A model generated the notes under the pieces. That model was not told where the DNA came from. It did not search any database and was given only the letters and a program-made list of their open reading frames with translations. Shown piece after piece: positions 440 through 18,928 of a stretch of DNA of 24,607 nucleotides. Position numbers and translations under genes: made by a program. Numbering within the stretch: position 1 is the first letter of the stretch; every line of letters starts with the position of its first letter. This stretch comes from a bacterium (lineage in GTDB: Bacteria; Zhuqueibacterota; Zhuqueibacteria; Oceanimicrobiales; Oceanimicrobiaceae): the NCBI GenBank assembly GCA_046757025.1, contig JBHHXN010000069.1:1-24607 (forward strand), in the 5' to 3' direction.

Positions 440-453
440 TTGATTTTTATCTG

Positions 454-990
454 TTAAATGATTATTCGAACGATCACCATTTGACACAGTAGATTTTCAC
501 TATCTCGACCTTCAGGCGTTAAATAAATGTGTTGAATTCGTGTCAAGAGGTCCTTTTTTTCAAGCCTTTCGTAAAAGGTCATCAGGTCAGCAAATCGCCC
601 AGTACACTCGATTTTAACCTGCAATTTTCTCAGGTCGGTTGCACTGCCATTGAGGCTTCGGTGTGATTTTAACTCCAAAGAGGAGATGCGGGGTTGAAAT
701 CGAACCATTAGCACTTGGGTGCCGGCAGCCGTTTGAATGTCTTTGAATAAGTTGGCCAATTCGTCCTGACCGTTATTTTCATCAAATGTCTGAATAGGGA
801 TGATATCTGACCTTTGCACTAATTTTAGCGTACTGATATATTGCTTCTGCACCTGATTTAACCTGAGAGTGCTGTTCTGCCATTTTGTGAGTAGGGGAGA
901 AATTACGATGGCTCTTAATAAAAAAATCATAGCGAATGCAATTGTGATGGTCATTAATATTTTTTCTCGAGAAGCGAATTGTCTTTTCAT
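454..990 (-). CDS. PilO/GspM-like inner-membrane platform protein (type IV pilus or T2SS assembly)
   Basis: The 178-aa product has a short N-terminal cytoplasmic segment, one TM helix (ILMTITIAFAMIFLLRAIVI) and a predicted coiled-coil periplasmic region. This is the PilO/GspM architecture. It sits immediately after the PilM-PilN gene, where pilO follows pilN in the conserved order. Confidence 0.5.
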   Translation of the reverse strand: MKRQFASREKILMTITIAFAMIFLLRAIVISPLLTKWQNSTLRLNQVQKQYISTLKLVQRSDIIPIQTFDENNGQDELANLFKDIQTAAGTQVLMVRFQPRISSLELKSHRSLNGSATDLRKLQVKIECTGRFADLMTFYERLEKKDLLTRIQHIYLTPEGRDSENLLCQMVIVRIII

Positions 991-1047
991 GATTAATCCA
1001 TGTGTTGAGTTAGGTGAAATATTTGTTCAAACAAGTTAGATGATTTT

Positions 1048-2619
1048 TCATTTTAAGGTAATCTCCATCTCAAATTCGATCGCTACCCTCTGGTTTTGCA
1101 TTTTTCGACGATTGGCTGTTGTGATTGTCACTTGTTTGATGGTCGGTTGCTGTGATAAGCTCTGGGGTATTTCAAAGACTTCTTTGAGTGCATTAGCTGT
1201 TGCGCGTAGCAATATTTTCTCACCGCGCATAAAAGTTAAAGAACTGAGCTCCACCGACGCAGGCAGCTTTACCAGTACCTGGGCAATTTGAGCCGCAGTT
1301 AATGTAGATGGTCCCAACTGCTGTTGCAGCTCTTGTTGAATGATTTGCCATTTCTTGATTAAATTGACTTCAGGATTTAGCGCAGAGATGCTTTCCTGCA
1401 TTTGCTGAATTTCTGAATGACGATTGTTTAATTCGATGTTGACTGCGATGACAGTTAATATGGCTAGGTAAAATATCAACAGGACTGAGTAACAAGTCTG
1501 ACGAATAAAATGGCGCCACCGCTGACTTTGCTGCTGCTCTTCCGAACGTAAATCCATCAAATGGTTATGGCGGGCTTTGGCCATGCCAAAAAGGGTTGAA
1601 ATTGAAAACCAGTGACGCATTGAGGCGATGTTATCTGAATTATTTGAGGCGCCGCAAGGAATCATAAGGTCGAACCAGCTAACCGGCTTATTCAAATTAT
1701 CAGTAAGCTTTTCTACCAGAGCATTAATTCGTGGAAGCCAGCCTGTAAGTACCACGTGCTCCACGCACCCATGCGAAGAATTTGATTCGAACATGGAAAG
1801 CGTTCTCTGTAATCCGACTGTTAATTCATTAATCCAGGTTTCATATATTATCGTGTGGTGCATGCCTTCCAGGCTTTTCATTAAACCGGCCACACCTTTA
1901 CCGAAACTTCTGCAATACTGAAATTGACCCTGATCGATTATGATCACGTTGACGGTTGAAAAATCGATATCCACCAAAGCCAGACATTTGTCCTCATGCT
2001 CAGGAAATGCTTTCGAGGAGATGACAAAAGAGTGGTAAATGGCTTCGACATTCAAACGAATGGCATCGATAGTCAATCCGACTTTCCGGCAAATATTGCT
2101 GTAGCGATCGATCTCTGCTTTGCGAGCTATGACTGCCAGGACCTGGGTGTAACCATCCTCTTCTTTCGCAACGACTCGGAAATCATAGACAATTTCTGCC
2201 GGTGAAATGGGAATATTTTTTTGTAATTGAAAACCGACCATTTTACGCAGTTCATCCTTGTCATGGCCTGGTAACCGCAACATTTTCACATGAACGTTCT
2301 GACGTGGAATCGAAATCGCGGCTTTAGTTCCGGGTCGTAACCGTAATTCCTGGAGAATCTCGAAGAGCACTTTTCCAATCTCTTCGTCCTGCTCGGATGA
2401 AACGTACTTGACCTTCAAGAAATGTACATGCTCCTTTTTTCCGCGTCCATCCAGCACGATGAGTTTGATCAAGTTAACATCGAATTCCACCGCCACAAAC
2501 GTGCTCGATTGCGGCAATAATTCGTACACCCAATCCCTGAACCCGTTGAAACGGTCGTTAGATTGAATATCGAGCATTGAAGTTGTTGTTACAGTCTTGG
2601 TAAGCGTTTCCATTTGCAA
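1048..2619 (-). CDS. PilM-PilN fusion protein (GspL-like). An actin-like cytoplasmic domain is fused through a single TM helix to a PilN-like periplasmic domain.
   Basis: The first ~370 aa have a PilM/FtsA-like actin fold. They are followed by a hydrophobic helix (YSVLLIFYLAILTVIAVNI) and a ~130-aa C-terminal coiled-coil/periplasmic region. The position between gspK and the pilO-like gene matches gspL. The ORF track starts at a TTG at 2619, but the ATG at 2613 (METLTK...) is the more likely start. Confidence 0.55.
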   Translation of the reverse strand: MQMETLTKTVTTTSMLDIQSNDRFNGFRDWVYELLPQSSTFVAVEFDVNLIKLIVLDGRGKKEHVHFLKVKYVSSEQDEEIGKVLFEILQELRLRPGTKAAISIPRQNVHVKMLRLPGHDKDELRKMVGFQLQKNIPISPAEIVYDFRVVAKEEDGYTQVLAVIARKAEIDRYSNICRKVGLTIDAIRLNVEAIYHSFVISSKAFPEHEDKCLALVDIDFSTVNVIIIDQGQFQYCRSFGKGVAGLMKSLEGMHHTIIYETWINELTVGLQRTLSMFESNSSHGCVEHVVLTGWLPRINALVEKLTDNLNKPVSWFDLMIPCGASNNSDNIASMRHWFSISTLFGMAKARHNHLMDLRSEEQQQSQRWRHFIRQTCYSVLLIFYLAILTVIAVNIELNNRHSEIQQMQESISALNPEVNLIKKWQIIQQELQQQLGPSTLTAAQIAQVLVKLPASVELSSLTFMRGEKILLRATANALKEVFEIPQSLSQQPTIKQVTITTANRRKMQNQRVAIEFEMEITLK

Positions 2620-2656
2620 TAGCTCACTTTTCTAAAGCGATGAATTTTCTAAACGA

Positions 2657-3673
2657 TTATTCTGACCATGCCACTATTTCTAATTCTGTTGCGCTAATGC
2701 GATTAACTGTGGCTGCAATCAATTTTTGGGCCTGGCCATTCGAAGTTTTGCCGAGTGAGTAAACAGTGAAATGAGTTGATGTTACACCGATGAGCTGTTC
2801 AGATACCAGGCGGTTAATTTGCACCTGTTCCGCTGGCGTGAGTTTCAGGTGCTTCATCAATTTTTGTAGAATGTCCGTTTCCTTTTTGAAAATCACGTCA
2901 TCTTCCGTGAATGGTGTGAAATCAGACCCCCAGCGTAACTTGCAGATTTTTTTAGCCAGTTCTGATTTTAACCCTAATGTTTGTAAAATTTTTATTGAAG
3001 TCGTGTTGAGATTGACTCCGCCATCGCCGTAAACCGTGACGAGTCCGCTGAGTCGGTGAATATCTTCGTCCGTAAATCCTTTCACCATTTTCAGCTCTTG
3101 CAAAAAATCGATGTCTGCATTTTTACAAGTGTAACGGCGTCGGTGGTTCAGATAATAGTCACTTTCCGCGCCGCCGGGTTCTGGCTCATCATCCTCATCC
3201 CGCCAATCGAGCAGTGCGGCCAATTTGTCTGCGGACATGCCCGGCAGCCGTGCGAGTATCTCTTTCGATACCCGGTTGATATTGATTTTGCGATTCTCAT
3301 CGTAAATTCCGTACACTTGATGTGGGCCGTCTGAAAGCTCAACGGTCTCATAGGTGATTTCAAAATGTCCGCCGACAAACGATACTTTTTTGAACAGTTC
3401 TGGCCTATTCGCCCAGTTCTCATCAAAGGCGTCGTACGATTGCAGAGAATCTTTGATCGCATCTGCTTTCAGGACCGCGATGGCATGCTGGATACCCGCT
3501 CTGGCCAGCCAGGCAGCTTTTACTGCTTGCAGCCTATCGTTATCCCACCGCAGGCCATGCAAAGCATGGCGCATCATGCCTGCTGAAATCAGGCTTAGCA
3601 GCGCCATCATCCACAATGCCGTGATGGACAGGCTGCCTTTCTCGTTTAAATGTAATTTAATTTTCCGTTTCAT
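2657..3673 (-). CDS. gspK: Type II secretion minor pseudopilin GspK
   Basis: The ORF track extends to 3775. The plausible start is the internal ATG at 3673 (MKRKIKLHLNEKGSLSITALWMMALLSLISAG), which gives a prepilin-like hydrophobic N-terminus and ~339 aa, the usual GspK size. This start overlaps the gspJ stop (3657-3659) by 17 nt. The gene follows gspH-I-J in the canonical order. Confidence 0.55.
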   Translation of the reverse strand: MKRKIKLHLNEKGSLSITALWMMALLSLISAGMMRHALHGLRWDNDRLQAVKAAWLARAGIQHAIAVLKADAIKDSLQSYDAFDENWANRPELFKKVSFVGGHFEITYETVELSDGPHQVYGIYDENRKININRVSKEILARLPGMSADKLAALLDWRDEDDEPEPGGAESDYYLNHRRRYTCKNADIDFLQELKMVKGFTDEDIHRLSGLVTVYGDGGVNLNTTSIKILQTLGLKSELAKKICKLRWGSDFTPFTEDDVIFKKETDILQKLMKHLKLTPAEQVQINRLVSEQLIGVTSTHFTVYSLGKTSNGQAQKLIAATVNRISATELEIVAWSE

Positions 3674-4277
3674 TTGAATTGAATTTTCCACTCGTTCGAA
3701 TCGGGTAAATGATTTCTTCGATCTCTCCAGCAAAGGCGGTGGCCATTTCGATGCGCACGGCCAAGGGTAATTCATCCGATGCGGACCAGCTGTCAGTCCA
3801 GATCGCGGTTTGATTTTGCAAATAACTGAACCGTAGTGATTTTACATTTGATAGCAGTTGTTTAGTTTTTTGCTTACCGTCCAAATTAGTGCTTGTGCGC
3901 ATGAGATTTTTCGCAGAATAGTCCGGTGCAGTTTCAAAATAGTAGCTGATGAAACGGTACCGCACCTGCCCGTTTGCATTGCAATAAGAAGCCGTAAATC
4001 GAAGAGAATCTGAATGGCCTCGGAATGAGTTTAAACGAAATGCTCGAATACTCCTGAGATCTGATTTCAGCAGCAGCCATGCCGCTGAAGATTGTATCAA
4101 AACCTCACTTTTCTGCCTGACTGCGAAGCGGGCAGCAACTGCCTTTTGCATGATTGCGACCGTGGCCAACCCGACGATGGCGAAAATAGACATGGCAGTC
4201 AGCACTTCGATGAGGGTGAAACCGTGGTCATTCGTCAAATCCGTTAGTCTGAAATAGTTTTTGATGTTTTTTCTCAT
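3657..4277 (-). CDS. gspJ: Minor pseudopilin, GspJ-like (prepilin-type N-terminal cleavage/methylation domain)
   Basis: The sequence contains the class-III signal peptide motif ...NDHG|FTLIEVLTAMSIFAIVGLATVAIM. The product is 206 aa, and the gene lies between the gspI-like and gspK genes. Confidence 0.5.
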   Translation of the reverse strand: MRKNIKNYFRLTDLTNDHGFTLIEVLTAMSIFAIVGLATVAIMQKAVAARFAVRQKSEVLIQSSAAWLLLKSDLRSIRAFRLNSFRGHSDSLRFTASYCNANGQVRYRFISYYFETAPDYSAKNLMRTSTNLDGKQKTKQLLSNVKSLRFSYLQNQTAIWTDSWSASDELPLAVRIEMATAFAGEIEEIIYPIRTSGKFNSNETEN

Positions 4278-4286
4278 TTGTTTACT

Positions 4287-4733
4287 TTAGCGTTCTTTTG
4301 CGACCGAATTGGTTTGATCGGCAGACAACAAAGTGGCAAGTGTGAGTGAGCCGTGTTTACCCCGATCAGTCCAGTCCACGGTCACCGAGACTTTGTTTAA
4401 GCCGGGCACGGCTGACCACTCCGATGTCTGTACCTGGCAATTGAAAATTTTCTGGTCGAATTTGATGAGTTTGTTTTCTGACATTAAACTTGCCGATGGC
4501 TTTAATTCTATTTTTGATAACAAGTTCTCGGCTATCTCAAGGGCGGGTCGATAATAATGCTGACGAAATTGTAAAACGTGCACCGACTTCTGGCATACCT
4601 GAATGAGGGCAATCATACCGAAAGACAGAAGTGCCAGCGCCAGCAGCGCCTCAAACAGCACAAAGCCGTTTTCAGAGGTTTTGATCGTCTGTTGAGCGCA
4701 CATCAATTTGTTCATTTTTGAATCGTATTTCAT
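4287..4733 (-). CDS. gspI: Minor pseudopilin, GspI-like
   Basis: The prepilin motif ...SENG|FVLFEALLALALLSFGMIALI is present. The product is small (about 125-148 aa depending on the start). Alternative starts exist at 4715 and 4703. The gene overlaps the 3' end of gspH, which indicates translational coupling. Confidence 0.5.
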   Translation of the reverse strand: MKYDSKMNKLMCAQQTIKTSENGFVLFEALLALALLSFGMIALIQVCQKSVHVLQFRQHYYRPALEIAENLLSKIELKPSASLMSENKLIKFDQKIFNCQVQTSEWSAVPGLNKVSVTVDWTDRGKHGSLTLATLLSADQTNSVAKER

Positions 4734-5160
4734 ATTTTCTACCTTGTTTAGTCACCAGGCTAATTGAATCCAGTGGATACATGCCATCAACTGACCAGAA
4801 AAGCACGACATCGAACGGCCGCAGTTCGAGTCCATCGATCAGCCTTTGCTTTTTCATGACTTGCCATTGTTCATGAACCGGCTCAGCCAGTTTGGTTGAA
4901 GAAATCACTTTAGTTTGCCGTTCAATGGTAAAGCCGGTTCCGTCAGACCAAATTTTAAAACGACGTTGCTGTCCCGTGAATAGGGTTTGCTCATGAATCA
5001 TTTGTAATTCTTCGGCGATGCCTTCCGCTGTGTTTTTTAATTGCATTTCCTGGTAGGAATTTGATAATCGCGGACTCATGGCTGCAATCAACAAACCTAA
5101 AATGAGCAACGTCAGGCATAATTCGATGAGAGTCAGACCACGGTCATTGTCCAGAAGCAT
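4672..5160 (-). CDS. gspH: Minor pseudopilin, GspH-like
   Basis: The ORF track extends to 5256. The ATG at 5160-5158 has a GGGAGG Shine-Dalgarno sequence 9 nt upstream (minus strand, 5175-5170). It gives the leader MLLDNDRG|LTLIELCLTLLILGLLIAA, a typical 8-aa prepilin leader. This start overlaps the gspG stop by 17 nt. Confidence 0.55.
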   Translation of the reverse strand: MLLDNDRGLTLIELCLTLLILGLLIAAMSPRLSNSYQEMQLKNTAEGIAEELQMIHEQTLFTGQQRRFKIWSDGTGFTIERQTKVISSTKLAEPVHEQWQVMKKQRLIDGLELRPFDVVLFWSVDGMYPLDSISLVTKQGRKYEIRFKNEQIDVRSTDDQNL

Positions 5161-5599
5161 CGTCATGGGCCTCCCAATTTGTGACATCGTCGTCGCCGCC
5201 TTTTTGCAGGTCCGGACCGAAAGAAACCAAATCATAACTGTCCGGATTGTTTTCACCCGGGCAGGTGTAAATGTACTCTTGTTTCCAGGGATCTTTTAAA
5301 TTGGTATTTTTTTTCAGATAGGGTCCTTGCCAGGAAACCGGTAGAGGTGGTGTGTCTGGCTTTCTAAGTAGAGCCTCTAACCCCTGCTCGGTCGTCGGGT
5401 AGATACCGTTATCTAAAAAATACAACTCTAAAGCCATGGCCAGATTGGCATTGATGTCGGCATGTGCGGCTGCCCGCCTGGCCTGTTCAGTGCGCCCGGC
5501 AAATTGCGGCACCACCAGTGCCACCAGGATGCCCAGTATGATAACCACCATCATGACCTCGATAAGTGTGAGGCCGGCTTCATTTTGCAATTTTGTCAT
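5144..5599 (-). CDS. gspG: Major pseudopilin GspG (type II secretion system protein G)
   Basis: The leader is MTKLQNEAG|LTLIEVMMVVIILGILVALVVPQF. The C-terminal signature KDPWKQEYIYTCPGENNPDSYDLVSFGPDLQKGGDDD matches the GspG hallmark (DPWGNPY.Y..PG....YDL.S.G.DG..GG.). Confidence 0.8.
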   Translation of the reverse strand: MTKLQNEAGLTLIEVMMVVIILGILVALVVPQFAGRTEQARRAAAHADINANLAMALELYFLDNGIYPTTEQGLEALLRKPDTPPLPVSWQGPYLKKNTNLKDPWKQEYIYTCPGENNPDSYDLVSFGPDLQKGGDDDVTNWEAHDDASGQ

Positions 5600-5626
5600 G
5601 ACCCAGGTCCTTTCGTTTGCATGATC

Positions 5627-7117
5627 TTACCGCACCACGATCATTCTTTTAGTTTGCTCAAAATTTTTTGTTTTTAAGCAGTAGAGATAAATGCCCGACG
5701 GCACAGGCTGTCCCGCCTCGTTTAAGCCATCCCACTTTTGATAATAAATTCCAGCCTGTTGTTCACGGCTAATCAGGGACCGCACTTTTTGCCCCAGTAA
5801 GTTAAATATTTCTAATTTCGTTAAGGCTTCAAATGGCAGCTCATATCGAATAACACTGCCTTGATTGAAAGGATTTGGATAGTTTTGTGAAAGCGAATAT
5901 TTTGCCGGCAGTGTCAGCGCTTGCGCCGAGACATCTTGTTTGTTGAATTCATCGTTTTCCCGGGCTTGACTTTGTTGCGCTGAGTTTGGAAATTTAAATT
6001 CCACTTCGTCGGATGGGGGGCTTTCTTCAAATAGAGTCGGTCCATACGCGGTTATGGCAATATAATAGGTGCTTTGCACAGATAAGCTGATTTCTTTTTC
6101 AGTGACCAAACCGACATCGATATGATGAGTATAGTTACCACTGGATAAACCGTAATGAATTCGATAGCCGGCCAGGTCCGGCTCCGTGTTTGGATTCCAG
6201 CTCACTCGCACTGTTTTAAAATCATTTTTGATTTCATGAAAAATGACTTTCCGCACTTTTAAATTCAAATCCTGATTCTTTTTTGGATTGGAATAATCAT
6301 TGGTGAACACGAAATAAAGCAACGTATCCGATTTGTTCGGTGTCATCTGTGCGAGAGACAACACCTGCCATTTGAGCGACGTGACCTGTTTTTCTTCTAA
6401 AAGATTTCGAGGGCCGTTCACTGCCAAACCGATATTCGGCCAGCGGTTAGCTGCGGTATCGGCGCTCACTTCTGCTTCGATTAAAAAACTCGAATACGGT
6501 ACAGAAGATATCGGACAGGCGATCCAGGCATTCTTTTTTTTGCCCAGACCCCAGACCACCACGTGATCATTTTCCACACTCACATTTTTTGAGAATTGCA
6601 TTTGTGCAGCAGGAATCGTGAAATATTCCTGAACAATTTTTTTAAACCGGACCGTTCGAATTCTCAAGTTGAGATCCTGCTTTTTTTTGCGTTTGTAGAA
6701 GTCGTTTGTGAAAACAAAATAAATTGAAGAGTCATTTTTATCAGGCGTAAATTGCCCTAGTGTAAGCCAGTGCCAGTCTACAGACAATACGCGTTTTTCT
6801 ACCTGCAAATTGCTGGAATCGTTAAATGCCACGGCAATATTAGGCCAGCGATTGGCGGCGGTGTCCGCGCTCACTTCCACTTCGACTGAAAAGTTCGAAA
6901 AGGGTAGGACCGCTAACGAAATAGCAATCCAGGCATACTTATTTCGTCCCATTCCCCAGATCACAACATGATCGCCTTCTGCAGTCACATTTCGAGAAAA
7001 TGTCATTTCGGATGCCGGCACAAGTAACTCCTGGTTGAGCGGTTGCCCCAGGCTAATTCTGCAAAGCGCAATCAGGATGACCAAAATTGAAATTTTCGTT
7101 AAAGTTGCTGCTAACAT
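5627..7117 (-). CDS. Secreted multidomain protein: signal peptide, two tandem copies of an unassigned ~133-aa domain, a fibronectin type III domain and a T9SS (Por) C-terminal sorting domain
   Basis: The N-terminal signal peptide is MLAATLTKISILVILIALCRISLG. The duplicated domain spans aa 33-165 and aa 168-300 and shares the motif EVSADTAANRWPNI. An FN3-like block follows (VRVSWNPNTEPDLAGYRIHYG...YYIAITAYG). The C-terminus, LSQNYPNPFNQGSVIRYELPFEALTKLEIFNLLGQKVRSLISREQQAGIYYQKWDGLNEAGQPVPSGIYLYCLKTKNFEQTKRMIVVR, fits the type-A T9SS CTD consensus (NYPNPFN..T.I.Y.L......L.IY...G..V..L......AG.......WDG.N..G..V.SG.Y.Y.L). Confidence 0.75.
   Translation of the reverse strand: MLAATLTKISILVILIALCRISLGQPLNQELLVPASEMTFSRNVTAEGDHVVIWGMGRNKYAWIAISLAVLPFSNFSVEVEVSADTAANRWPNIAVAFNDSSNLQVEKRVLSVDWHWLTLGQFTPDKNDSSIYFVFTNDFYKRKKKQDLNLRIRTVRFKKIVQEYFTIPAAQMQFSKNVSVENDHVVVWGLGKKKNAWIACPISSVPYSSFLIEAEVSADTAANRWPNIGLAVNGPRNLLEEKQVTSLKWQVLSLAQMTPNKSDTLLYFVFTNDYSNPKKNQDLNLKVRKVIFHEIKNDFKTVRVSWNPNTEPDLAGYRIHYGLSSGNYTHHIDVGLVTEKEISLSVQSTYYIAITAYGPTLFEESPPSDEVEFKFPNSAQQSQARENDEFNKQDVSAQALTLPAKYSLSQNYPNPFNQGSVIRYELPFEALTKLEIFNLLGQKVRSLISREQQAGIYYQKWDGLNEAGQPVPSGIYLYCLKTKNFEQTKRMIVVR
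6218..7021 (-). repeat. Intragenic tandem duplication (2 x ~400 bp) encoding the two paralogous domains of the T9SS-CTD protein
   Basis: Nucleotide-level similarity is visible. For example, 6436-6480 (gccagcggttagctgcggtatcggcgctcacttctgcttcgat) matches 6840-6884 (gccagcgattggcggcggtgtccgcgctcacttccacttcgac). The protein-level alignment of the two copies is about 45-50% identical. Confidence 0.7.
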
Positions 7118-7147
7118 ATTTTCACTTTTGATTTGATATGAATAAAA

Positions 7148-7924
7148 TCAAAATAAATTAACTGAACCGTTTAAGGTGTTTCCATAAATGAGCACCAATA
7201 GGGCTCCTGCACCCAGAAAAGGTCCAAATCGAATTTCCCGAGTGTGCCGGGATTCCGGCCGGATCCCCATTCGAACGCATCCAAACACTACGCCAGAAAA
7301 GGCCGCCACCATGATGGTCGTGAGTCCGAGCTGCCAACCCAGAAAGGTTCCGATCATGGCCGCAAATTTGATGTCGCCTCCGCCCATGACCTCCGGCTTT
7401 CGAAAAATAAATTCACCCAGCCGGCCACTGGCATAGAGAAATCCACCACAAAGCAACAGGCCCCAAATGGGGTCGGTCAGTTTAAGCGATGAAAGAATTC
7501 CCGCCAGTGCGACTCCGGCTGCTATACCAGTGAGGGTTATTTTATCTGGAATGATTTTATGTTCTAAATCCATATACACCCCGACAACCAGCAGCCCTGC
7601 GAATAGCCAATTCGACAAAAGGATTTTAACATCGGAGAACTGGCTAAAAAGGAGTATGAATACCAGGCCGGTGATGGTTTCCAGGATGGGATATTTTACT
7701 GAAATAGTTTTGTGACAGCAGCGACTTTTACCGTGCAATAATAAGTATCCGAACAAGGGTAATTTTTGCAGCCAGCTCAAATGAGTGCCACAATGGTCGC
7801 AATAGGAGCGACCCAGCACCACGGACTCACCGCGCGGTATTCGAAATGAACACAGCCCGGCAAAACTGCCAACGGCTATACCGATTAAAAAAGTGATTAC
7901 AAATGGAAATATTTTAAAGATCAT
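7148..7924 (-). CDS. gspO: Prepilin peptidase (A24 family, PilD/GspO)
   Basis: The product is a 258-aa polytopic membrane protein with the tetra-Cys motif CDHCGTHLSW...CCHKTIS and Asp-containing loops typical of type IV prepilin peptidases. Its start overlaps the gspF stop by 1 nt. Confidence 0.8.
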   Translation of the reverse strand: MIFKIFPFVITFLIGIAVGSFAGLCSFRIPRGESVVLGRSYCDHCGTHLSWLQKLPLFGYLLLHGKSRCCHKTISVKYPILETITGLVFILLFSQFSDVKILLSNWLFAGLLVVGVYMDLEHKIIPDKITLTGIAAGVALAGILSSLKLTDPIWGLLLCGGFLYASGRLGEFIFRKPEVMGGGDIKFAAMIGTFLGWQLGLTTIMVAAFSGVVFGCVRMGIRPESRHTREIRFGPFLGAGALLVLIYGNTLNGSVNLF

Positions 7925-9141
7925 TATTGCACCACGAAGTCAATTTGAAAAATGGGCATCATCATGGCAAAGACGATAAAGCCAATGACGGCACCTATCA
8001 AAATAATCATGGCGGGCTCAAGGAGCCGCGTGAATAAGGATACCCGGCGTTCCACCTCTTGCTCATTGGATTTAGCTATTCGGTTCAGCACCTTTTCCAG
8101 TTGATTCGTGTCTTCTGCGATAGATATCATTTGCCCCAGGAGAGCGGGTAAATGATCGCCGGCTGCTAGATTGTCTCCCATACGCCCGCCACTTCGGATT
8201 GCTTCTGCCGTTTTACTGAATTCCTGTTGCAGAATTAAATTTTTGCAAGCTGCCACCACGACCTCAAATGCCTGATGAATGGGTACTCCATGAGCGAGCA
8301 GTGCGCTCATGGTACGAGCAAATTGCGTAATCTCTGCCTGGATTATCAGGGAGCCAAAAAACGGCAAACGCAGCTTTAGTTTGTCCAACCTAAGTTTGAA
8401 TTCGTTCTGTGTGTATTTAATTTTAATCATGGTGGCCAGAATCAAACCTGCCAGTAACATCAACGGCCATTGATTTGAAACACTGTTTGAAACCGACAAC
8501 AATATTTTGGTGGGCAGCGGTAGTGTCTGGCCGATTTCATGAAACATGGTCACGATTTGCGGTACCACAAATGTCAGCAGAATGGTGACAGTCAGAATCC
8601 CCATACTCAGCATCAACAGAGGATAAGCCAGAGCGGCGCGAATCTGCTTTTGTACGGAGTCTTCCTTTTCCAGGTAATTGGCCAGATGTTCGAGAACCAA
8701 TTCCAACATCCCGCCGGCTTCCCCGGCTTTGATCATGTTCACGTAAAATTTTGAAAACATACCAGTCCAGGCAGCGCATGCTTCAGAAAAACGGCTGCCG
8801 TCCTGCAGGCGTTCTAAAAGATCGGGTAAAACCCTCGCAAACGATCCTTTCGAAGCTTGCTTTTGCAACAGGAATAAAGCGGAATGCACCGTCATCCCCG
8901 CTTCCAGCATGTTCGCCAATTGTCTGGTAAAAAGTATTACCTCTGATTTATTTTTTCGTGAAATGAGATTCAGAAGGAAACCGGATTTGTGCTCTCTCTG
9001 GCTTTTGAGCGGTACAATCTCCACCGGGAACAGCCCTTTTTCAGCGAGCTGCGCAGCCAGCAAATTGGCGCTTTCTGCTTGCATGGCACCCTGAACCATT
9101 TTTTCAGGGGTCGATCTGGCTAAATATTCAAACATTGGCAT
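7924..9141 (-). CDS. gspF: Type II secretion / type IV pilus inner-membrane platform protein GspF/PilC
   Basis: The 405-aa product has two T2SSF-type repeats and three TM segments. The N-terminal region (...AAQLAEKGLFPVEI...) is typical GspF. It lies 3 nt downstream of gspE. Confidence 0.8.
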   Translation of the reverse strand: MPMFEYLARSTPEKMVQGAMQAESANLLAAQLAEKGLFPVEIVPLKSQREHKSGFLLNLISRKNKSEVILFTRQLANMLEAGMTVHSALFLLQKQASKGSFARVLPDLLERLQDGSRFSEACAAWTGMFSKFYVNMIKAGEAGGMLELVLEHLANYLEKEDSVQKQIRAALAYPLLMLSMGILTVTILLTFVVPQIVTMFHEIGQTLPLPTKILLSVSNSVSNQWPLMLLAGLILATMIKIKYTQNEFKLRLDKLKLRLPFFGSLIIQAEITQFARTMSALLAHGVPIHQAFEVVVAACKNLILQQEFSKTAEAIRSGGRMGDNLAAGDHLPALLGQMISIAEDTNQLEKVLNRIAKSNEQEVERRVSLFTRLLEPAMIILIGAVIGFIVFAMMMPIFQIDFVVQ

Positions 9142-9144
9142 GGA

Positions 9145-10764
9145 TTATTTCTCAACCTCCTGTGTAACACGCAAAACTTCATCTAACGTGGTAATCCCAC
9201 GACTAATCTTTTCGATGCCGTCGTTGCGCAGACTTACCATGCCTTTTTCGATGGCTAATTTACGTAGCTGATTGGCTGGCGTTTTCATCACGATTTGTTC
9301 TCGAATTTCATCGTCGATTTTCATAAATTCGTAGATGGCGGTACGCCCAAAATAGCCGCTCTGTTTGCACATTTCACATCCCCTCCCTCGATATAATGTA
9401 TGATTTCCGCCCCCGAGTTTTCGAAATAACGTTTGCCGACCATTGCGGACATTTTCGCTTTTTTTGCAGTCCGTACAAATTACGCGAACTAATCTTTGCG
9501 CCACGATACATTCAACTGAAGCGGCAATTAAATAAGGCTCGATTCCCATGTTGATGAGTCGGGCCACGGCACTGGCCGCATCGTTGGTGTGAAGAGTGCT
9601 GAATACCAGATGGCCGGTCATGGCCACCTGAATAGTCACCTCGGCAGTTTCATTGTCGCGAATTTCGCCCACGAGCATGACATCGGGATCGTGGCGCAGC
9701 ATGGACCGCAGGCCCTGCGCAAACGTGAGGCCAATTTTAGGGTTCACCTGCACCTGCGAAATGCCGGTCAATTGATACTCGATGGGATCCTCCACCGTGA
9801 TGATTTTTCGCGCACTATCATTGATTTTGTTTAAACAAGAATACAGGGTGGTAGTTTTGCCGCTACCAGTCGGCCCGGTCACCAGGATGATTCCGTGTGG
9901 TTTTTCCAATAACTGTTCGATCAAAATTAAATCCCGCCGCATCAAACCCAGGCTTTCGAGATTTAGGGCTACGTGATTGCTGTTTAAAATTCGGATATTT
10001 ACCGACTCCCCAAAAGGTGTGGGTAAAATTGAAATCCGCAGATCCAATTCCTGCTGGCCTGTGCGCACTTTTATGCGTCCATCCTGAGGAAGCCGCTGTT
10101 CCGCAATGTTTAAATTGGCCATAATTTTGATGCGGGAAACAATGGCAGGATGCAGATGTTGTAGGGATTCCGGTACAGAAACCTCGTAGAGCACCCCATC
10201 AACCCGATAACGGATGCGTAAACGCGATTCATAAGGTTCGATATGGATGTCTGTGGCCCGCTCCTGAAAGGATTCGATGAGCAATTCGTTCACAAAAGCC
10301 ACGATGCTGGCTTCTTCGGATTGCTGTTCAAGGTCGGTTGCATAATCGGCAGTCAGATCAATGTAATGGCTGGCATCGGTTTCATTCAGCATTCGATGGA
10401 CGGTTTCGGCTCCTAAACCGTAGATATGCCGCAATGCCTCTTCAATCTGTTCGGCGTTGGCCTTTAATGGTTCGATCTCCTTTTTTAGAAGCCATTTGAG
10501 TTCATCAAGGGTGGCTAAATCATCAGGTTCCATGGTGGCTATTTGTAACCGATCTCTATCTTCACCCAAAGGAATAATTTTATACTGACAGGCCACCGGT
10601 GCGTCGATGAGATGGTGCAGCGATTTGGATGCCGGAGATTTTAACAGTTGCGACAGTAATACAGCGGCATTTTTATATTTGGATTTCTTATTTTCTGCCA
10701 GCGGCAACGGTTGCTTTACAAGTGTCTTTTTCTTGAGATTTTGGGATTCAGGTAACCAGCTCAA
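9145..10764 (-). CDS. gspE: Type II secretion ATPase GspE (PilB/GspE family)
   Basis: Walker A is GPTGSGKTTTLY. The C-terminal tetra-Cys zinc motif is CTDCKK...CEMCKQSGYFGRT, and the N1 domain motif is present. There is no in-frame ATG near the N-terminus. The ORF track uses the TTG at 10770. The second TTG at 10764-10762 lies 7 nt downstream of a perfect AGGAGG (minus strand, 10777-10772) and is the more likely start. Confidence 0.85.
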   Translation of the reverse strand: MSWLPESQNLKKKTLVKQPLPLAENKKSKYKNAAVLLSQLLKSPASKSLHHLIDAPVACQYKIIPLGEDRDRLQIATMEPDDLATLDELKWLLKKEIEPLKANAEQIEEALRHIYGLGAETVHRMLNETDASHYIDLTADYATDLEQQSEEASIVAFVNELLIESFQERATDIHIEPYESRLRIRYRVDGVLYEVSVPESLQHLHPAIVSRIKIMANLNIAEQRLPQDGRIKVRTGQQELDLRISILPTPFGESVNIRILNSNHVALNLESLGLMRRDLILIEQLLEKPHGIILVTGPTGSGKTTTLYSCLNKINDSARKIITVEDPIEYQLTGISQVQVNPKIGLTFAQGLRSMLRHDPDVMLVGEIRDNETAEVTIQVAMTGHLVFSTLHTNDAASAVARLINMGIEPYLIAASVECIVAQRLVRVICTDCKKSENVRNGRQTLFRKLGGGNHTLYRGRGCEMCKQSGYFGRTAIYEFMKIDDEIREQIVMKTPANQLRKLAIEKGMVSLRNDGIEKISRGITTLDEVLRVTQEVEK

Positions 10765-10869
10765 TTTCAAGCCTCCTATTTTTCGGCTATTAAAAGGGTC
10801 CTTGATCCTGTTCTTGCAATCAATTAGAATTCAATCGAGATTTTAAGCGATGATTTGATTTCCCAGGAA

Positions 10870-10885
10870 GGCAAACGGTGTACCA
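10870..10885 (-). promoter_or_regulatory. Candidate sigma-54 (-24/-12) promoter upstream of gspE
   Basis: The minus strand reads TGGTACACCGTTTGCC. Against the consensus TGGCACG-N4-TTGCW it has GG and GC at the exact 10-nt spacing. The predicted transcription start is about 90 nt upstream of the gspE start. A sigma-54-dependent activator is encoded 2.6 kb away. Confidence 0.35.
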
Positions 10886-11011
10886 GAAGAAAATCGTGCT
10901 TGAAAATGAAGAAATTGCTTATTAATAAGGAAGGTTGATGGCGAAGAGTAAATGTAGAATTGTTACTGTGGGATTGACAACCTGTAAAGGTTTACTTGAC
11001 AAAATAGAATA

Positions 11012-11380
11012 CTATTTTCGGGAAAGAGCTTTGCGGATGACTTTGCGGATTTTTTTGATGGAGACGGGTTTGGTGAGATATTCAAAAGCACCTTGTTTTA
11101 GGACTTCCTCTGCTGAATGTTGCGTCCCCTGACCGGTGATGACGATGATAGGAATCATTTCATTTTTTTTCTTAATTTCCTTTAAAGCTTCAAATCCATC
11201 GATAATTGGAATAGCCAGATCTAGAAGCACAACCTGCGGTTGCTCGGTCTCGAATTTCTTCAGGGCCTCGGCGCCGTCTCTGGCTTCGATACTTTCATAT
11301 CCTTCTTTTTCCAATAATTCGTTGAAAGCGAATAGAATCCGCTCGTCATCATCAACAACAAGAATTTTAGGTTTGCTCAT
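11012..11380 (-). CDS. Stand-alone response-regulator receiver domain (CheY-like, no output domain)
   Basis: The 122-aa product has the acidic pocket VVDDDE, the phospho-acceptor Asp in VVLLDLAIP, T in IIVITGQG and K in LTKP. An AGGA ribosome-binding site lies 8 nt upstream. The protein is about 55% identical to the receiver domain of the sigma-54 activator at 13465. Confidence 0.8.
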   Translation of the reverse strand: MSKPKILVVDDDERILFAFNELLEKEGYESIEARDGAEALKKFETEQPQVVLLDLAIPIIDGFEALKEIKKKNEMIPIIVITGQGTQHSAEEVLKQGAFEYLTKPVSIKKIRKVIRKALSRK

Positions 11381-12509
11381 GAGGATTGTCCTGGGTAGTT
11401 AATGTCAAGGAGACGCGACCAAGTTGTTGATTCAGTTCTGTATGAGGAGCCGCATTTTACCTGCCTGATTGATACCTTGCTAATAAAATTGATTAAATGA
11501 AAGACTATGTTTATGCCATCGTTTCAGATACACGCACTAGAGCCGATATTCAGCTTTATTATAAACCTATATAAACAGGTTCCGCGCATGGGTGTATTTA
11601 GGCACTAAAGAGTAAGACAATGTCAACAGGTGGTACTGCTGTTTGCGCTAATTTTAACAGTGGCAAATGTCATACCTGCTTTGGTGCAAATAAACGATTT
11701 TTTATTTTATTTATTTTTATAATTCCAAATTAAAACATCAGAATGTACAATAGTCCGATTATATTCTACCAACACGGATCCCCTTTCTGAAATCGTCAAT
11801 AAAGACGATTAATTGGAGAATTCTGCGTTAATAAAAAAGAATTGAGTCGTTTCTGTATTCGCTGAAAATAATTGACAAAATGATGATTACAATGTAAAAA
11901 TGTCCTCATGAGAAAAATCCATCGTTAGGGTGTTTTAATGGTCGCAAAATCAACTTCATACGTTGGTGCATAATAAATCTGAAGAAGCGTTGGGGTCCGA
12001 ATTAAGACAGTCTTGAAATAATTGATAATAAGAGTCTTATGTCTGAATAGCATGAAGGCCGCCTTGATTTTCAGGCCGGAATTTGAACAGTTTTACCAAT
12101 TATTTCCGTATGCCAAGTTGAAATGAATTATTTTTAAGTTATTAATTAATAAAAATTAATGTTGTTACCATTTAGTCAATTATTTTGTTGGCACGCTCTT
12201 TGAATTAATAATAATTGTAGCAGAAGAATGAGGATGGAGCAATCATTTGCTTCCGGTATGAGGTTGTGTAAACGGTGGGATTGAGCCAGTCCGAGTGGAG
12301 ATGCAACGAATTCAAGTTCTTTTCTTGTTCCCATCCCTGACAAAATATTAATCCTATTAAAGTTCATATAGCTGGCATTTCGCTGAAGATTGAAGTGAAA
12401 CAACGCAATGTTTTTGTTTATTGCATGCAAATTCTAATCATGCGGCCACTGGATTTTATGTGGAACGCTTAGTTCCATAAATTACTGGGCAAATCAAAGG
12501 GAGGTGAAC

Positions 12510-13460
12510 ATGTCGATACGCAGTGACCAAGTACAAAATAGATGGCAGATGCATGCCTTTCAGCCCCCTAATCAAGCGTTGAAATCGTTGATTGAAAAGG
12601 CAGAAAAAATCGGGGATGGCCTGAACTCAGCCTCAAAGACGCCTTTTGAACGAATTCGTGATCAAGCGGATGCGGAGATGACTGTGGGTCAGATGTCCGC
12701 GATGATTTCTCATGAGTTTCGGAATGCGCTGACTTCCATCAAAATGATTCTCGAGCTTCAAATCGAATCCAGAAATTTAAATCCATCGGAAAAAAAGTCA
12801 CTAAGCGTGGCGCTTAAGTCCATTAACCACATGGTCGATGTTGTCACCCGGCTTCTCAATTTTTCAAGGCCAATGCCTCCTGATTTTCAATGTGAGGACC
12901 TCAATGAAGTGGTAACCGAGAGCCTTCAGTTTGTGAAGACGCAATTAAAAAAAGAAAGAATCACTATTCAACCGGCTTTTGATTCAAACATTCCTACTAT
13001 GTTACTCGATGCCCACCGCATCAAAGAAGCGCTGGTAAATCTCCTTTTAAACGCCATGCATGCTTTAGAAAAGAAAAAACCAGCGGGCGGCAACAGAATG
13101 ATTTCAGTGGCGACTAAAAGACACACCCTTCACCAGGCCCTTAGCGATCGTTCTTATTCGGGTTCGTGCAAAATTCCAAGAAGTGAGGATGGCAATTTTG
13201 ACCAACCCTTCCTGGAATTGGCTGAGGGTACCGAATGTGTTTTAATTGAAATAAAAGACAATGGTGAGGGCATCAATCCCGAGCATTTCCGGCACATATT
13301 TGATCCTTTTTATACCACGAAATCCAGAGGCACCGGACTGGGGCTTGCCATCGTGAAACAAACTATAAATGAGCACGGCGGAATGATTACCATAAACAGT
13401 TTGCTAGGACAGGGAACCACAATTAAATTATATTTACCTTTGCTAAATTGCAGGAGATGA
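12510..13460 (+). CDS. Cytoplasmic sensor histidine kinase (HisKA + HATPase_c, no TM helix and no recognisable sensor domain)
   Basis: The H-box is MISHEFRNALTSI, the N-box LLLNAMHAL, G1 IKDNGEGI and G2 GTGLGLAIV. The ATG at 12510 has a GGGAGG sequence 5 nt upstream. The GTG at 12504 used in the ORF track lies inside that ribosome-binding site. Confidence 0.8.
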   Translation: MSIRSDQVQNRWQMHAFQPPNQALKSLIEKAEKIGDGLNSASKTPFERIRDQADAEMTVGQMSAMISHEFRNALTSIKMILELQIESRNLNPSEKKSLSVALKSINHMVDVVTRLLNFSRPMPPDFQCEDLNEVVTESLQFVKTQLKKERITIQPAFDSNIPTMLLDAHRIKEALVNLLLNAMHALEKKKPAGGNRMISVATKRHTLHQALSDRSYSGSCKIPRSEDGNFDQPFLELAEGTECVLIEIKDNGEGINPEHFRHIFDPFYTTKSRGTGLGLAIVKQTINEHGGMITINSLLGQGTTIKLYLPLLNCRR

Positions 13461-13464
13461 CAAC

Positions 13465-14853
13465 ATGGGTCTCAAAAAAGTGATGTTTGTAGATGATGAC
13501 GATGAAATCCTATTTGCTTTCCGTGAGGTGGTTAAGAAAGAAGGTTATTTACCGGTTGAAGCCCGGGATGGGCAACAAGCATTGGAACAATTCGACCTTG
13601 AAAAACCAGAAGTGATCTTCATGGATGTCTCCATGCCTAACCTGGACGGACTGGAAGCTCTCAAACAGTTTAAAAAGAAAAACCGCTTTATTCCGGTGAT
13701 TATGATTACCGGCAAAGGAAATATGAAAACGGCCATCAATGCCATGAAATTGGGGGCATTCGATTATCTCACCAAACCGTTATCCGTGAAAAAAGTGCGT
13801 CAATCGATTGCTCAGGCCCTGTCCAGCTCAAAAAAATCTTCAGCAAAACCAATACACTTCGACGCAGAGACCATGGATCGTCACGAGCTCATCGGAGTCA
13901 GCGATGTGATGCAGAATGTCTACAAACTAATTGGTTCGATTTCAGTGACACCGAACCACACTTCTGTTTTGATCACCGGTGAAAGCGGCACCGGCAAGGA
14001 ATTGGTCGCTCGTGCCATTCATAAAAACGGCCCTCATGCGGAAGAGCCCTATATGGCGGTTAATTGTACAACCTTACCGGAGAATCTGCTGGAATCCGAA
14101 CTTTTTGGCCATGAGAAAGGCGCTTTTACAGGCGCGGCTCAGAGAAAATTAGGTAAATTTGAAGTGGCTGGATGTGGAACGATTTTTCTGGATGAAATTG
14201 GCGATCTGTCAACCGCACTGCAACAAAAATTGTTACGCGTGCTACAGGAACGTCAGTTTGAGAGATTAGGAGGACACGATCAAATCGAAGTCCAGGCGCG
14301 CTTTGTCGCTGCCACCAATCAAAACATCGCTGAGAGTACCATAAACGGCCGTTTTCGCGAAGACTTATTTTATCGTTTGAACGTAGCAACCATTCATTTG
14401 CCGCCTTTGAGAGAACGCAAGGAAGACATCGTTTTGCTCGCCTACTATTTTCTGACAAAATATAACCATCAATTTAATAAAGCCATAAACGGTTTTTCAA
14501 AACAGGCCCTGTCGCTTTTGCAAGCTTATTCCTATCATGGCAATGTTCGCGAACTGGAAAACCTCATCGAACGTGCGGTGATGTTGACCCAGGGCAAGGT
14601 AATCCTTCCTGAAATATTCAGTGAAATGTTTACACCACCGGCTCCGGAAGCGACTCTCCTTCCCATAATCAGCTCGGTATTTAAAGAATCCCGTGAACAC
14701 CTTTTGAATCAGTTCGAGAAGCAGTTTGTAACCGAGCAGCTCACCAAAAATTGTGGGAATGTCAGTGCGGCCGCAAGAATGAGCCAAATGTCCCGCCAAA
14801 ACTTTCATCGACTGCTATCCAAGCACCAAATCCAACCGGAGCGCCTGATCTGA
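13465..14853 (+). CDS. Sigma-54-dependent response regulator (NtrC/PilR family: REC, AAA+ and HTH domains)
   Basis: Receiver domain is VDDDDE...FMDVSMP...LTKP. The AAA+ domain has Walker A GESGTGKE and the GAFTGA sigma-54 contact motif (EKGAFTGAAQ). The C-terminus carries a Fis-type HTH. The start lies 4 nt after the histidine kinase stop. Confidence 0.85.
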   Translation: MGLKKVMFVDDDDEILFAFREVVKKEGYLPVEARDGQQALEQFDLEKPEVIFMDVSMPNLDGLEALKQFKKKNRFIPVIMITGKGNMKTAINAMKLGAFDYLTKPLSVKKVRQSIAQALSSSKKSSAKPIHFDAETMDRHELIGVSDVMQNVYKLIGSISVTPNHTSVLITGESGTGKELVARAIHKNGPHAEEPYMAVNCTTLPENLLESELFGHEKGAFTGAAQRKLGKFEVAGCGTIFLDEIGDLSTALQQKLLRVLQERQFERLGGHDQIEVQARFVAATNQNIAESTINGRFREDLFYRLNVATIHLPPLRERKEDIVLLAYYFLTKYNHQFNKAINGFSKQALSLLQAYSYHGNVRELENLIERAVMLTQGKVILPEIFSEMFTPPAPEATLLPIISSVFKESREHLLNQFEKQFVTEQLTKNCGNVSAAARMSQMSRQNFHRLLSKHQIQPERLI

Positions 14854-15058
14854 TTCGAACTCATTCTGGATTTATTGGAATATTGCAAATAAATATGAGT
14901 ATTTCAGATTGTGGAATGTGTAGGTTGGCTATTTGCACGTTCATTCCGAAATCCGCATTCTGCAGTCGCCATGTTTTAAATTTCCTTTTCTTTTTACCAT
15001 ATCAACCGTTTTTTCGCTGCAGTGTCTGCGAAAAGGCATAGAATCCTTACCGCCCCAT

Positions 15059-15086
15059 AAAAAAAGGCCACCGCAAATGGGTGGCC
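15059..15086 (-). terminator. Rho-independent terminator, minus-strand orientation
   Basis: A perfect 7-bp stem GGCCACC (15066-15072) pairs with GGTGGCC (15080-15086) across a 7-nt loop. On the minus strand it is followed by a U7 run (complement of 15059-15065). Confidence 0.6.
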
Positions 15087-15460
15087 GTCGAAGTGTTCTC
15101 AGCACTGTGAAATTAAACTGTGAGAATGATTAAGAGTCATTCAAATTTTAATGCTCTTTATAGTATTACTTCTGAACTTTTGCATTTTTTTACAAGAAAA
15201 TGGCTAAATGACGCGAAGTGAATGACACGACCCGTCATAAAGTCATCAGGTCATTTGCCTTTGGCGTCATTTTAGACAGCAGCAATAATTCACCTCTGTC
15301 AATGACAGCGAGGCTTAATGACGGCTGATAATAGCACCATGGTTTGGACCACAACAAAGCAAGTCATTTAAACATTTGCGGCTCCGCCGCGCTAGGTAAA
15401 CGAGAGGATGTGTGTACAATCGTTTACATTTTTCAGCTATTTTTGAAAAACCGGTTTCAC

Positions 15461-16258
15461 TTATTTGGCAGTGATTTCTTCCTCGGGCATGTAGGAAATG
15501 TCAGGACGACTCCTGCCGGTTTTTTGCACGAATTTACGAGTAACCGCCATGGCTTTGGCAGCCAGCGCTTGACCTTCCTCTCCCAGCATTTCCTTTATTT
15601 TTTCTTGCTGGGTGAAAAAGTCGGAAGCGCTTTTGGCCCATGATACCACCACAAACAGGGGCATTTCCGTGCCCATCTCACCGATGTATAGATTGTATCC
15701 GTCCGCAATCTTTTTGCTGGCATAAAGCGCTTTATACTGCCTGGCTATTTCGTTGGCTTCTTTCTCTTTACCGGCTTTAATGTAGAGATAGGTCCAGTGA
15801 AGGAAAGTGGCCTCTTCGGGTTTGAGTCTGGGCGCTTCTGGCTGGTAGGAATATTCGCCACTCATTCTGGCTATGAGGTCCTGATGATATTCGTAAGTGC
15901 CTGCAAAACGCTTGTCAAATTCCTGCCTTTTCTCCTCGCCTAATTTCTTATCAAACTCCTCACCCGCTTTTTTGATTTTATCCAAGTCAGCAAAATTTTC
16001 TAACGGCACTAGATAAAAGTAGTGAAAATCATTCGTACTGGAAGATTGCATGTAAGGGAATGCGATTTTGTGTTTGACAAATTCAGCCACGTAATCTTTT
16101 ACCGCAGACTCATATTGTGCCACCATCGAAGGTTTCACAATATCTTCGTGAATAGAATATAGCTGCCCTGTAGGTTTTTCATCCTGGGCAAAAACCGGTA
16201 GTGCCAGGAGACCAACCAATACAGCTACTAAAATCGGGAATAGAGTCGGTTTTTTCAT
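15461..16258 (-). CDS. Secreted hypothetical protein (signal peptide, Lys/Glu-rich, no recognised domain)
   Basis: The 265-aa product begins MKKPTLFPILVAVLVGLLALPVFA|QDE. The region shows clean coding statistics. A GGAGG sequence lies upstream (minus strand, about 16265-16269). Confidence 0.6.
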   Translation of the reverse strand: MKKPTLFPILVAVLVGLLALPVFAQDEKPTGQLYSIHEDIVKPSMVAQYESAVKDYVAEFVKHKIAFPYMQSSSTNDFHYFYLVPLENFADLDKIKKAGEEFDKKLGEEKRQEFDKRFAGTYEYHQDLIARMSGEYSYQPEAPRLKPEEATFLHWTYLYIKAGKEKEANEIARQYKALYASKKIADGYNLYIGEMGTEMPLFVVVSWAKSASDFFTQQEKIKEMLGEEGQALAAKAMAVTRKFVQKTGRSRPDISYMPEEEITAK

Positions 16259-18882: not shown

Positions 18883-18928
18883 TTGAATCCATGTAATTTA
18901 AATCAATTAAAGATTGAGAGAACCCCTT

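Follow-up and report, generated by a model that had tools for sequence, protein, structure and literature searches.

Branched two-component pathways are exemplified by CheA with CheY1 and CheY2, the latter two forming a phosphate-sink arrangement in Sinorhizobium meliloti, and by DivJ and PleC with DivK and PleD in Caulobacter. Sigma-54 activators are paired with kinases of various kinds; PilS, a membrane kinase with six transmembrane (TM) segments, senses pilin, and the PilS/PilR pair controls type IV pilin genes. The MrrA hub places a single-domain receiver in a branched two-component pathway (PMC5964349), and in Campylobacter jejuni and Helicobacter pylori the soluble kinase FlgS and the sigma-54 activator FlgR control genes of an envelope-spanning export machine, FlgS sensing assembled export-apparatus proteins by contact (PMC3760246). 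Our full-text literature search found no account of an NtrC-family activator whose own receiver is duplicated as a separate protein alongside it. Here we analyzed such a locus in contig JBHHXN010000069.1 (assembly GCA_046757025.1) of a bacterium of the Zhuqueibacterota; the whole stretch of 24,607 nucleotides is referred to below as the window. It encodes a stand-alone receiver, a soluble histidine kinase and a sigma-54 activator, which recur together in related genomes, and carries a predicted activator binding site and sigma-54-type promoter in front of a type II secretion-like operon. To our knowledge, no signalling has been studied in the phylum of this organism.

The features on which the analysis turns are the following, in window coordinates.

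11012..11380, minus strand: stand-alone receiver (single-domain response regulator), 122 aa, with Pfam Response_reg (1.9e-30) as sole domain
11381..12509: AT-rich spacer of 1129 bp (35-38% GC) separating the receiver gene from the divergently oriented kinase gene; no gene is recognisable in it
12510..13460, plus strand: soluble histidine kinase, 316 aa, HisKA and HATPase_c only
13465..14853, plus strand: sigma-54 enhancer-binding response regulator, 462 aa, with receiver, AAA+ ATPase and Fis-type helix-turn-helix (HTH) domains
10961..11001, minus strand: tandem upstream activator site TGTCAAGTAAACCTTTACAGGTTGTCAATCCCACAGTAACA, the predicted activator binding site, starting 10 nt past the receiver stop
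10870..10885, minus strand: sigma-54-type -24/-12 element TGGTACACCGTTTGCC, with the gspE start about 95 nt downstream
454..10770, minus strand: type II secretion-like operon (Pfam), the predicted target

The open reading frame (ORF) listing bears out the coordinates and strands given for the three genes in the initial annotation, and the spacer, described there as 1.1 kb, spans 11381-12509.

BLASTP aligned the stand-alone receiver with the sigma-54 activator over 119 residues without gaps (63 identities, 53%; 79% positives; E value 1e-45), close to the identity of about 55% over the whole length reported initially, and the blocks then quoted, ILFAF, EARDG, ITGxG and GAFxYLTKPxSxKKxR, are indeed common to both receivers. 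Because this identity far exceeds the 34-43% that receivers unrelated to the pair reach in the same alignment, the two are true paralogues, as had been proposed. Both have D10, D11, D12, D54, T82 and K104, which are kept in all orthologues, and by these residues the stand-alone protein is a phosphorylatable, CheY-like receiver. A search of 5.8 billion proteins yielded six stand-alone orthologues (P0122-P0127) with 50-61% identity and lengths of 122-124 aa, except for P0123, which is called at 152 aa. In the alignment used for tree building, the window receiver is 60-61% identical to P0122-P0124 as against 52% to its own activator, and in the neighbour-joining tree the stand-alone receivers of several lineages cluster within the activator-receiver family. 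This topology, with weak bootstrap support, points to one old, retained duplication of the activator's receiver. When genomes and metagenomes were scanned with the receiver alignment, the matches were mostly activator or unrelated receivers, and no contig of greater length with a stand-alone orthologue came up. Stand-alone receivers of Desulfobacteraceae (43-49% identity) were considered and rejected as members of the group; they lie in an unrelated context, with dCache kinases and a transporter, and have no ILFAF.

In structures of kinase-regulator complexes, the kinase-docking surface of the receiver consists of helix 1 and the beta5-alpha5 loop. In both receiver groups these regions read K14-ILFAF19 in helix 1 and F99-x-YLTKPL106, and the family kinases have HEFRN[AS]LTSxxMILELQ in common. 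The motif DDxxxIL[FS]AF was present in 87 of the 120 activator matches and in 8 of the 120 best receiver matches, 7 of these 8 being the window protein and P0122-P0127. Thus, a family-specific helix 1, together with the conserved H-box helix of the kinase, fits one kinase shared by both receivers. Helix 4 is hydrophobic in the activators (TMQTAIKAM), whereas it is charged in the stand-alone receivers (QHSAEEVLK, KHNEEEARR), a pattern that fits a protein still docking on the kinase but without the activator-type receiver contacts. The two groups also differ two residues after D54 and T82, where the stand-alone receivers have V/A and Q and the activators T/S and Y/H/K; these two positions influence phosphorylation and dephosphorylation kinetics (PMC8510515).

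The three-gene arrangement of the window recurs in three independent assemblies (L001-L003, of which L001 and L002 have the same sequence as the window) and is therefore not an assembly artefact. Furthermore, a stand-alone receiver was found beside a related kinase-activator pair in 8 of the 10 related loci with enough flanking sequence, and only L004 and L007 have none. The gene orders in the related loci are as follows.

L012: kinase (two-TM), activator, cytochrome c peroxidase with a type IX secretion system (T9SS) tail, receiver
L008 and L174: activator, receiver
L173 (short contig): kinase, with the receiver directly after it
L175: kinase, activator, 104-aa ORF, receiver
L176: kinase, activator, receiver
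L013 and L014: stand-alone receiver of a second type (about 34% identity, ILSAF in helix 1)

L175 and L176, contigs of 58-62 kb, had been picked solely for the identity of their activators (63-64%). The three-protein module suggested by the initial annotation is thus upheld, with the receiver accompanying related pairs in L008, L012, L013, L014, L174, L175 and L176 and following the kinase in L173; the label 'orphan' given to the receiver was wrong, since it is conserved as the third member. The divergent layout, also described initially, is real in the window but peculiar to the window lineage; elsewhere the receiver gene lies on the same strand, downstream of the activator. The closest named relatives are Ignavibacteriae metagenome-assembled genomes, and on the evidence of these conserved neighbourhoods kinase, activator and stand-alone receiver are one recurring module in Ignavibacteria-like bacteria. 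The receivers of the second type (128-153 aa, ILSAF) follow related kinase-activator pairs at L013 2847-3290, L176 11598-11984 and L014 15036-15497. In L175, where a hybrid kinase stands ahead of the orthologous activator, the region immediately upstream of that kinase (1-6035) holds a KaiB gene, two more PAS kinases, a 142-aa stand-alone receiver of unrelated type and an IS200-like Y1 transposase.

Comparison of intergenic regions brought out the tandem site, [TGTCAA-N7-TTTACA]-N3-[TGTCAA-N6/7-TTGACA]. Its core of 18 specified bases occurs once in the window (10974-11001, minus strand), against a chance expectation of 0.04 even when 3 mismatches are allowed. In 1.84 Mb of fetched loci, exact copies of the core were confined to the family loci L008, L012 and L173 and to L001 and L002; L173, which holds an exact copy, was fetched after the pattern had been fixed. 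Near variants were found in L013, L174 and L175. In L013 and L176, a nearby palindrome reads TGCCAA-N7-TTGGCA instead of TGTCAA-N7-TTGACA.

A classic activator-dependent sigma-54 promoter consists of GG-N10-GC at -24/-12, with the activator site about 80-150 bp upstream. The tandem site is paired with a -24/-12 element at near-constant spacing (about 95-107 bp) in six lineages, namely the window, L008, L012, L173, L174 and L175, the background of elements of such quality being 0.13 per kb per strand. The pairs are listed below, with distances taken from the centre of the tandem site to the GG.

Window: TGGTACACCGTTTGCC, 97 bp, next gene gspE
L012: CGGAACGGCTGTTGCT, 106 bp, next gene peroxidase
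L008: TGGAATGGCCATTGCT, 106 bp, next gene receiver
L008, second site: TGGTCTGGCTCTTGCC, 107 bp, next gene lipoprotein
L173: TGGAACGGCTGTTGCA, 106 bp, next gene receiver
L174: TGGAACGAGCCTTGCT, about 95-100 bp (estimated by eye), next gene receiver
L175: TGGTATGACTATTGCT, about 105 bp, next a 104-aa ORF about 540 nt downstream, then the receiver

By motif and spacing, the predicted site and element of the window have the layout of an activator-dependent sigma-54 promoter. Since the pair is located between the end of the receiver gene and gspE, the activator in the window probably targets the type II secretion operon. In at least three sister lineages (L008, L173 and L174), the small receiver gene itself appears to be a direct target of the activator, which would imply feedback. 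The initial annotation had included neither this probable output, with its conserved upstream site and sigma-54-type promoter, nor the position of the receiver gene, which is the first of a long minus-strand run and precedes gspE, on the same strand, by 241 bp. A sigma-54-like match at -24 within the spacer (TGGCACGCTCTTTGAA; 12189..12204, plus strand) was rejected as a sigma-54 promoter of the kinase gene; it is without the -12 GC, has no upstream site of the conserved type nearby and overlaps a sigma-70-like TTGGCA-16-AATAAT.

The genes of the predicted target operon, all on the minus strand, are the following.

9145-10770: gspE, with an MshEN N-domain
7924-9141: gspF
7148-7924: prepilin peptidase
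5627-7117: CBM60/T9SS-tail protein, 496 aa
5144-5599: gspG
within 454..10770: minor pseudopilins including GspJ
2657-3775: gspK
1048-2619: PilM/PilN fusion, 523 aa, GspL-like
454-990: GspM-like, weak match

The type II secretion components in the window are thus GspE, F, O, G, J and K, the PilM/PilN (GspL-like) fusion and the weak GspM match, with GspE scoring 615 bits against the NCBIfam cut-off of 630. No secretin (GspD) gene was found in the window, and it may lie beyond position 1. The protein between the prepilin peptidase and gspG combines CBM60 modules with a T9SS C-terminal sorting domain, an odd mix of secretion systems, and the fusion of PilM-like and PilN-like parts occupies the position expected of GspL.

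The kinase, whose ATG at 12510 is preceded by GGAGG, is a HisKA-type histidine kinase. Pfam assigns HisKA to residues 62-122 (2.5e-12) and HATPase_c to residues 171-313 (3e-22), with no match before residue 62; the phospho-acceptor H68 lies within SHEFRN, which includes the E/N phosphatase motif HExxN, and the N, G1, F and G2 boxes read NLLLNA, DNGEGI, FDPFYTTK and GTGLGL. No TM helix was detected in the kinase, the highest 19-residue Kyte-Doolittle mean being 1.02. The AlphaFold2 model (mean predicted local distance difference test score 71.7) has disordered residues 1-20, a single low-confidence helix at 21-36, helices at 45-85 and 92-119 and an alpha/beta domain, and no PAS fold in its N-terminus. 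Hence Pfam, hydropathy and structure prediction agree with the initial description of a kinase without TM helix or input domain, and the cryptic PAS domain for which a structural check had been suggested did not appear; the kinase has no recognisable PAS, GAF, HAMP, Cache or TM input module before the H-box.

Kinase homologues (40-52% identity) align over the catalytic core only, about 81% of the query, and bear PAS domains, a two-TM module or both; in two further loci, dCache-HAMP-PAS and hybrid multi-PAS kinases precede orthologous activators. Because the relatives carry such sensors, the sensor-less state is a lineage-specific loss. As judged from these comparisons, the sensor is an exchangeable part of the kinase family and the window kinase is a stripped version particular to its lineage. 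It follows that input by protein-protein interaction, put forward initially, is one possibility, with FlgS as precedent, but is not implied by the absence of a sensor. One might speculate that a single inversion from the usual order of kinase, activator, receiver and target truncated the kinase and also cost the receiver its promoter, although no remnant was found; a pseudogenised sensor was sought in the spacer and in the window as a whole by tblastn, with the sensor regions of ten homologues as queries, and the best E value was about 0.05. Candidates for further sensor-less kinases were likewise rejected. P0017 was one of them; in its locus (L006 8515-10834), the translation of the 494-aa multi-PAS ORF upstream contains an X and leaves the frame, indicating a PAS-kinase gene split by an ambiguous base or frameshift. 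The other short homologues lie on contigs of at most 2.3 kb. Kinases of this family also carry about 35 inserted residues between the N and G1 boxes (residues 207-241 of the window kinase, window 13128-13232), disordered in the AlphaFold2 model. Just before G1, Cys243 is invariant in the kinase family; together with the cytochrome c peroxidase gene as target in L012, this invariant Cys raises the question of a redox input.

The activator starts 4 nt past the kinase stop and is an NtrC-class bacterial enhancer-binding protein, with Pfam matches to Sigma54_activat (1.1e-65), Response_reg (1.4e-28), AAA_lid_14 and HTH_8 and with GESGTGKE, LDEIGD and GAFTGA in its translation. All NCBIfam scores for named pairs fell under their cut-offs (AtoS 193.9 against 646, AtoC 439 against 714, NtrB/PRK11073 71.4 against 240, NtrC/TIGR01818 400.3 against 558.6). 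Thus, kinase and activator are not AtoS/AtoC or NtrB/NtrC equivalogs. Homologues of the activator number about 1,400.

We read these features as a branched module in which the small receiver would be a competing phospho-acceptor and the activator would drive the type II secretion operon, a reading to which we give an even chance of being right. The kinase would autophosphorylate on His68 and pass the phosphoryl group to Asp54 of the activator, which would bind the tandem site at 10961-11001 and turn on the secretion operon from the -24/-12 promoter at 10870-10885. With helix 1 and the beta5-alpha5 loop as its docking surface, the small receiver would bind the same kinase, become phosphorylated on its own Asp54 and serve as a sink or buffer setting the threshold and duration of activator phosphorylation. 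The role of competing phospho-acceptor is suggested because the small receiver has neither an output domain nor the hydrophobic helix 4 of the activators, and we consider a function as competitor or phosphate sink plausible. In the three sister lineages, the receiver gene behind the same site and promoter would complete a loop of negative feedback; in the window, this control would have been lost, with the receiver gene divergent from the kinase. Given the loss of the sensor domain seen in its relatives, the window kinase would be constitutive or controlled in trans.

Several points weigh against the competing-acceptor scheme. The -24/-12 element of the window (TGGTAC...TTGCC) is a 9/12 match, and matches of this grade are not enriched across the window (10 found versus 15.8 expected); rpoN is absent from the window, and neither an upstream site nor a sigma-54 promoter can be recognised for the window receiver gene itself. 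The bootstrap value for the window receiver within the stand-alone clade is below 50%, and the conservation of helix 1 could partly stem from common descent rather than from a shared partner. The differences at D+2 and T+2 give no predictable direction, and the fast turnover required of a sink cannot be derived from them. More generally, everything in the scheme beyond sequence conservation is what we infer from it.

The same features lend themselves to other interpretations. A kinase that has no sensor of its own but retains the HExxN phosphatase motif, and a receiver that retains the kinase-docking helix 1 but whose gene, in the window, is uncoupled from the upstream-site and sigma-54 control seen in L008, L173 and L174, would suit a small receiver acting in the manner of DivK as an allosteric regulator, and effectively as the input, of the kinase, phosphorylated itself by another kinase or by acetyl phosphate. 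Allostery of this type is established, since DivK switches DivJ and PleC between kinase and phosphatase modes in Caulobacter, and a receiver-like protein reportedly inhibits CckA directly (PMC9430884). However, the receiver family also occurs with kinases bearing PAS/dCache sensors (L175, L176) or a two-TM sensor (L012), so that replacing the sensor cannot be its conserved role, and the window holds no second kinase; we regard allosteric control as fairly unlikely. The loss of the kinase sensor and the escape of the receiver gene from sigma-54 control also make a rewired module conceivable, albeit improbable, in which the activator-derived receiver has become the input, toggling the bare kinase between kinase and phosphatase modes and thereby gating type II secretion. 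Such a receiver may be phosphorylated from elsewhere or sense the state of the secretion machine, a DivK-like circuit evolved from a sink. Alternatively, the phosphorylated receiver might form a second output branch by binding the GspE ATPase, so that secretion would be controlled both transcriptionally and post-translationally. The location of its gene relative to gspE and the MshEN regulatory N-domain of GspE speak for this, and the receiver-only protein DrdR of Xanthomonas is reported to modulate the ATPases PilB and PilT (PMC13535131). The orthologous receivers, however, accompany the kinase-activator pair and not secretion genes, their neighbours being cytochrome c peroxidase in L012, a lipoprotein in L008 and other genes in L174 and L175, and we judge this second branch to be unlikely.

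Descent from the activator's own receiver, at 53% identity, would also fit an anti-activator acting directly on the activator, through mixed receiver dimers or by blocking the AAA+ ring. The alpha4-beta5-alpha5 face, which includes helix 4, mediates dimerisation or AAA+ contact in NtrC-family receivers, and the divergence of this helix from the hydrophobic MQTAIKAM of the activators to a charged one argues against a homotypic interface. DrdR offers a partial precedent, as it reportedly binds the sigma-54 activator FleQ and inhibits its ATPase and DNA binding (PMC13535131), yet direct action on the activator seems to us quite doubtful. Finally, the neighbourhood might be due to chance, with the pair being NtrB/NtrC for the amtB, PII and glnA genes at 17563-20813 (plus strand, 2.7 kb downstream of the kinase-activator pair), PII being the input to the kinase and the receiver belonging to another pathway. 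NtrB is indeed a soluble kinase regulated by PII, and NCBI names the window kinase 'nitrogen regulation protein NR(II)'. Against this, the NtrB and NtrC models fall well short of their cut-offs (71 versus 240 and 400 versus 559), with AtoS and AtoC scoring higher; amtB is preceded by neither the upstream site nor a -24/-12 element and is separated from the pair by two opposite-strand genes; and orthologous pairs adjoin unrelated genes, keeping the receiver and the upstream site. On the NCBIfam cut-offs and the context, an NtrB/NtrC identity of the pair was rejected, and a chance neighbourhood is very improbable.

Other parts of the window were also inspected. The 1129-bp spacer was considered as the seat of a hidden gene or RNA, but it contains no credible ORF and has no Rfam match; its repeats and sigma-70-like matches are weak and at background level. 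The motif AAATAATTGA(C/T/G) occurs there four times, at 11866(+), 12016(+), 12093-12106(-) and 12172-12186(-). The activator is followed by a gene-free stretch of 607 bp (14854-15460), two genes on the opposite strand and then amtB, the PII gene and glnA. In the gene-free stretch, a strong hairpin with a T-run at 15066-15086(-) lies about 375 nt past the stop of a gene for a 265-aa secreted protein (15461-16258, minus strand) and suggests a long 3' untranslated region or an unannotated small RNA; the sole Rfam match there is to isrD, below threshold and on this hairpin. The listed glnA ORF (TTG at 19116) overlaps the PII gene, and its true start is probably further downstream.

What emerges from the comparison is a sigma-54 circuit of three components, recurrent in Ignavibacteria-like bacteria and so far undescribed; the comparison also predicts that a type II secretion operon of an uncultured organism is under sigma-54 and two-component control. 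With the predicted binding site and promoter now concrete, the regulon becomes searchable and testable. Since members of the family vary naturally in whether the kinase has a sensor and in whether the feedback loop includes the receiver, the module could be a compact system for studying sinks and feedback. No current view is overturned, and a specialist would find the circuit sensible rather than surprising.

Among the described systems, FlgS/FlgR resembles the window in combining a soluble cytoplasmic kinase with a sigma-54 activator and provides the precedent for protein-protein input. However, FlgS/FlgR lacks a single-domain receiver as companion, its proteins are not closely related to those of the window, and the relatives of the window kinase, unlike FlgS, carry ordinary PAS, TM or dCache sensors. 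AtoS/AtoC and NtrB/NtrC, the best-scoring NCBIfam models, share with the window a HisKA-type kinase and the domain order of the activator (receiver, AAA+ with GAFTGA, Fis-type HTH); a PAS domain, however, is absent from the window kinase, and neither the predicted binding site nor the predicted target genes are those of the named pairs. PilS/PilR likewise places a kinase and a sigma-54 activator over genes of the type IV filament superfamily, which includes type II secretion; it is without a stand-alone receiver, and the predicted target in the window is a whole Gsp-type operon led by the ATPase gene. DrdR of Xanthomonas campestris (PMC13535131) matches candidate roles of the window receiver in being receiver-only and affecting a sigma-54 activator and filament ATPases, but its receiver domains come in tandem, and its reported effects arise from binding to FleQ, PilB and PilT; it is not known to be a paralogue of the FleQ N-terminal domain or to be encoded alongside a dedicated kinase-activator pair.

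Single-domain receivers that serve as sink, hub or allosteric partner in branched two-component pathways are familiar, and the window is a fairly ordinary example of such pathways. As in those pathways, one kinase would serve two receivers, one of them devoid of an output domain, and the presumed task of this small receiver is to take phosphoryl groups away or pass them elsewhere, or else to exert feedback on the kinase. In the sister lineages, the module departs from them in that the small receiver gene itself lies behind the activator's predicted site and promoter. In the window, the distinction is that the small receiver is a direct duplicate (53%) of its partner's receiver and that this partner is a sigma-54 activator.

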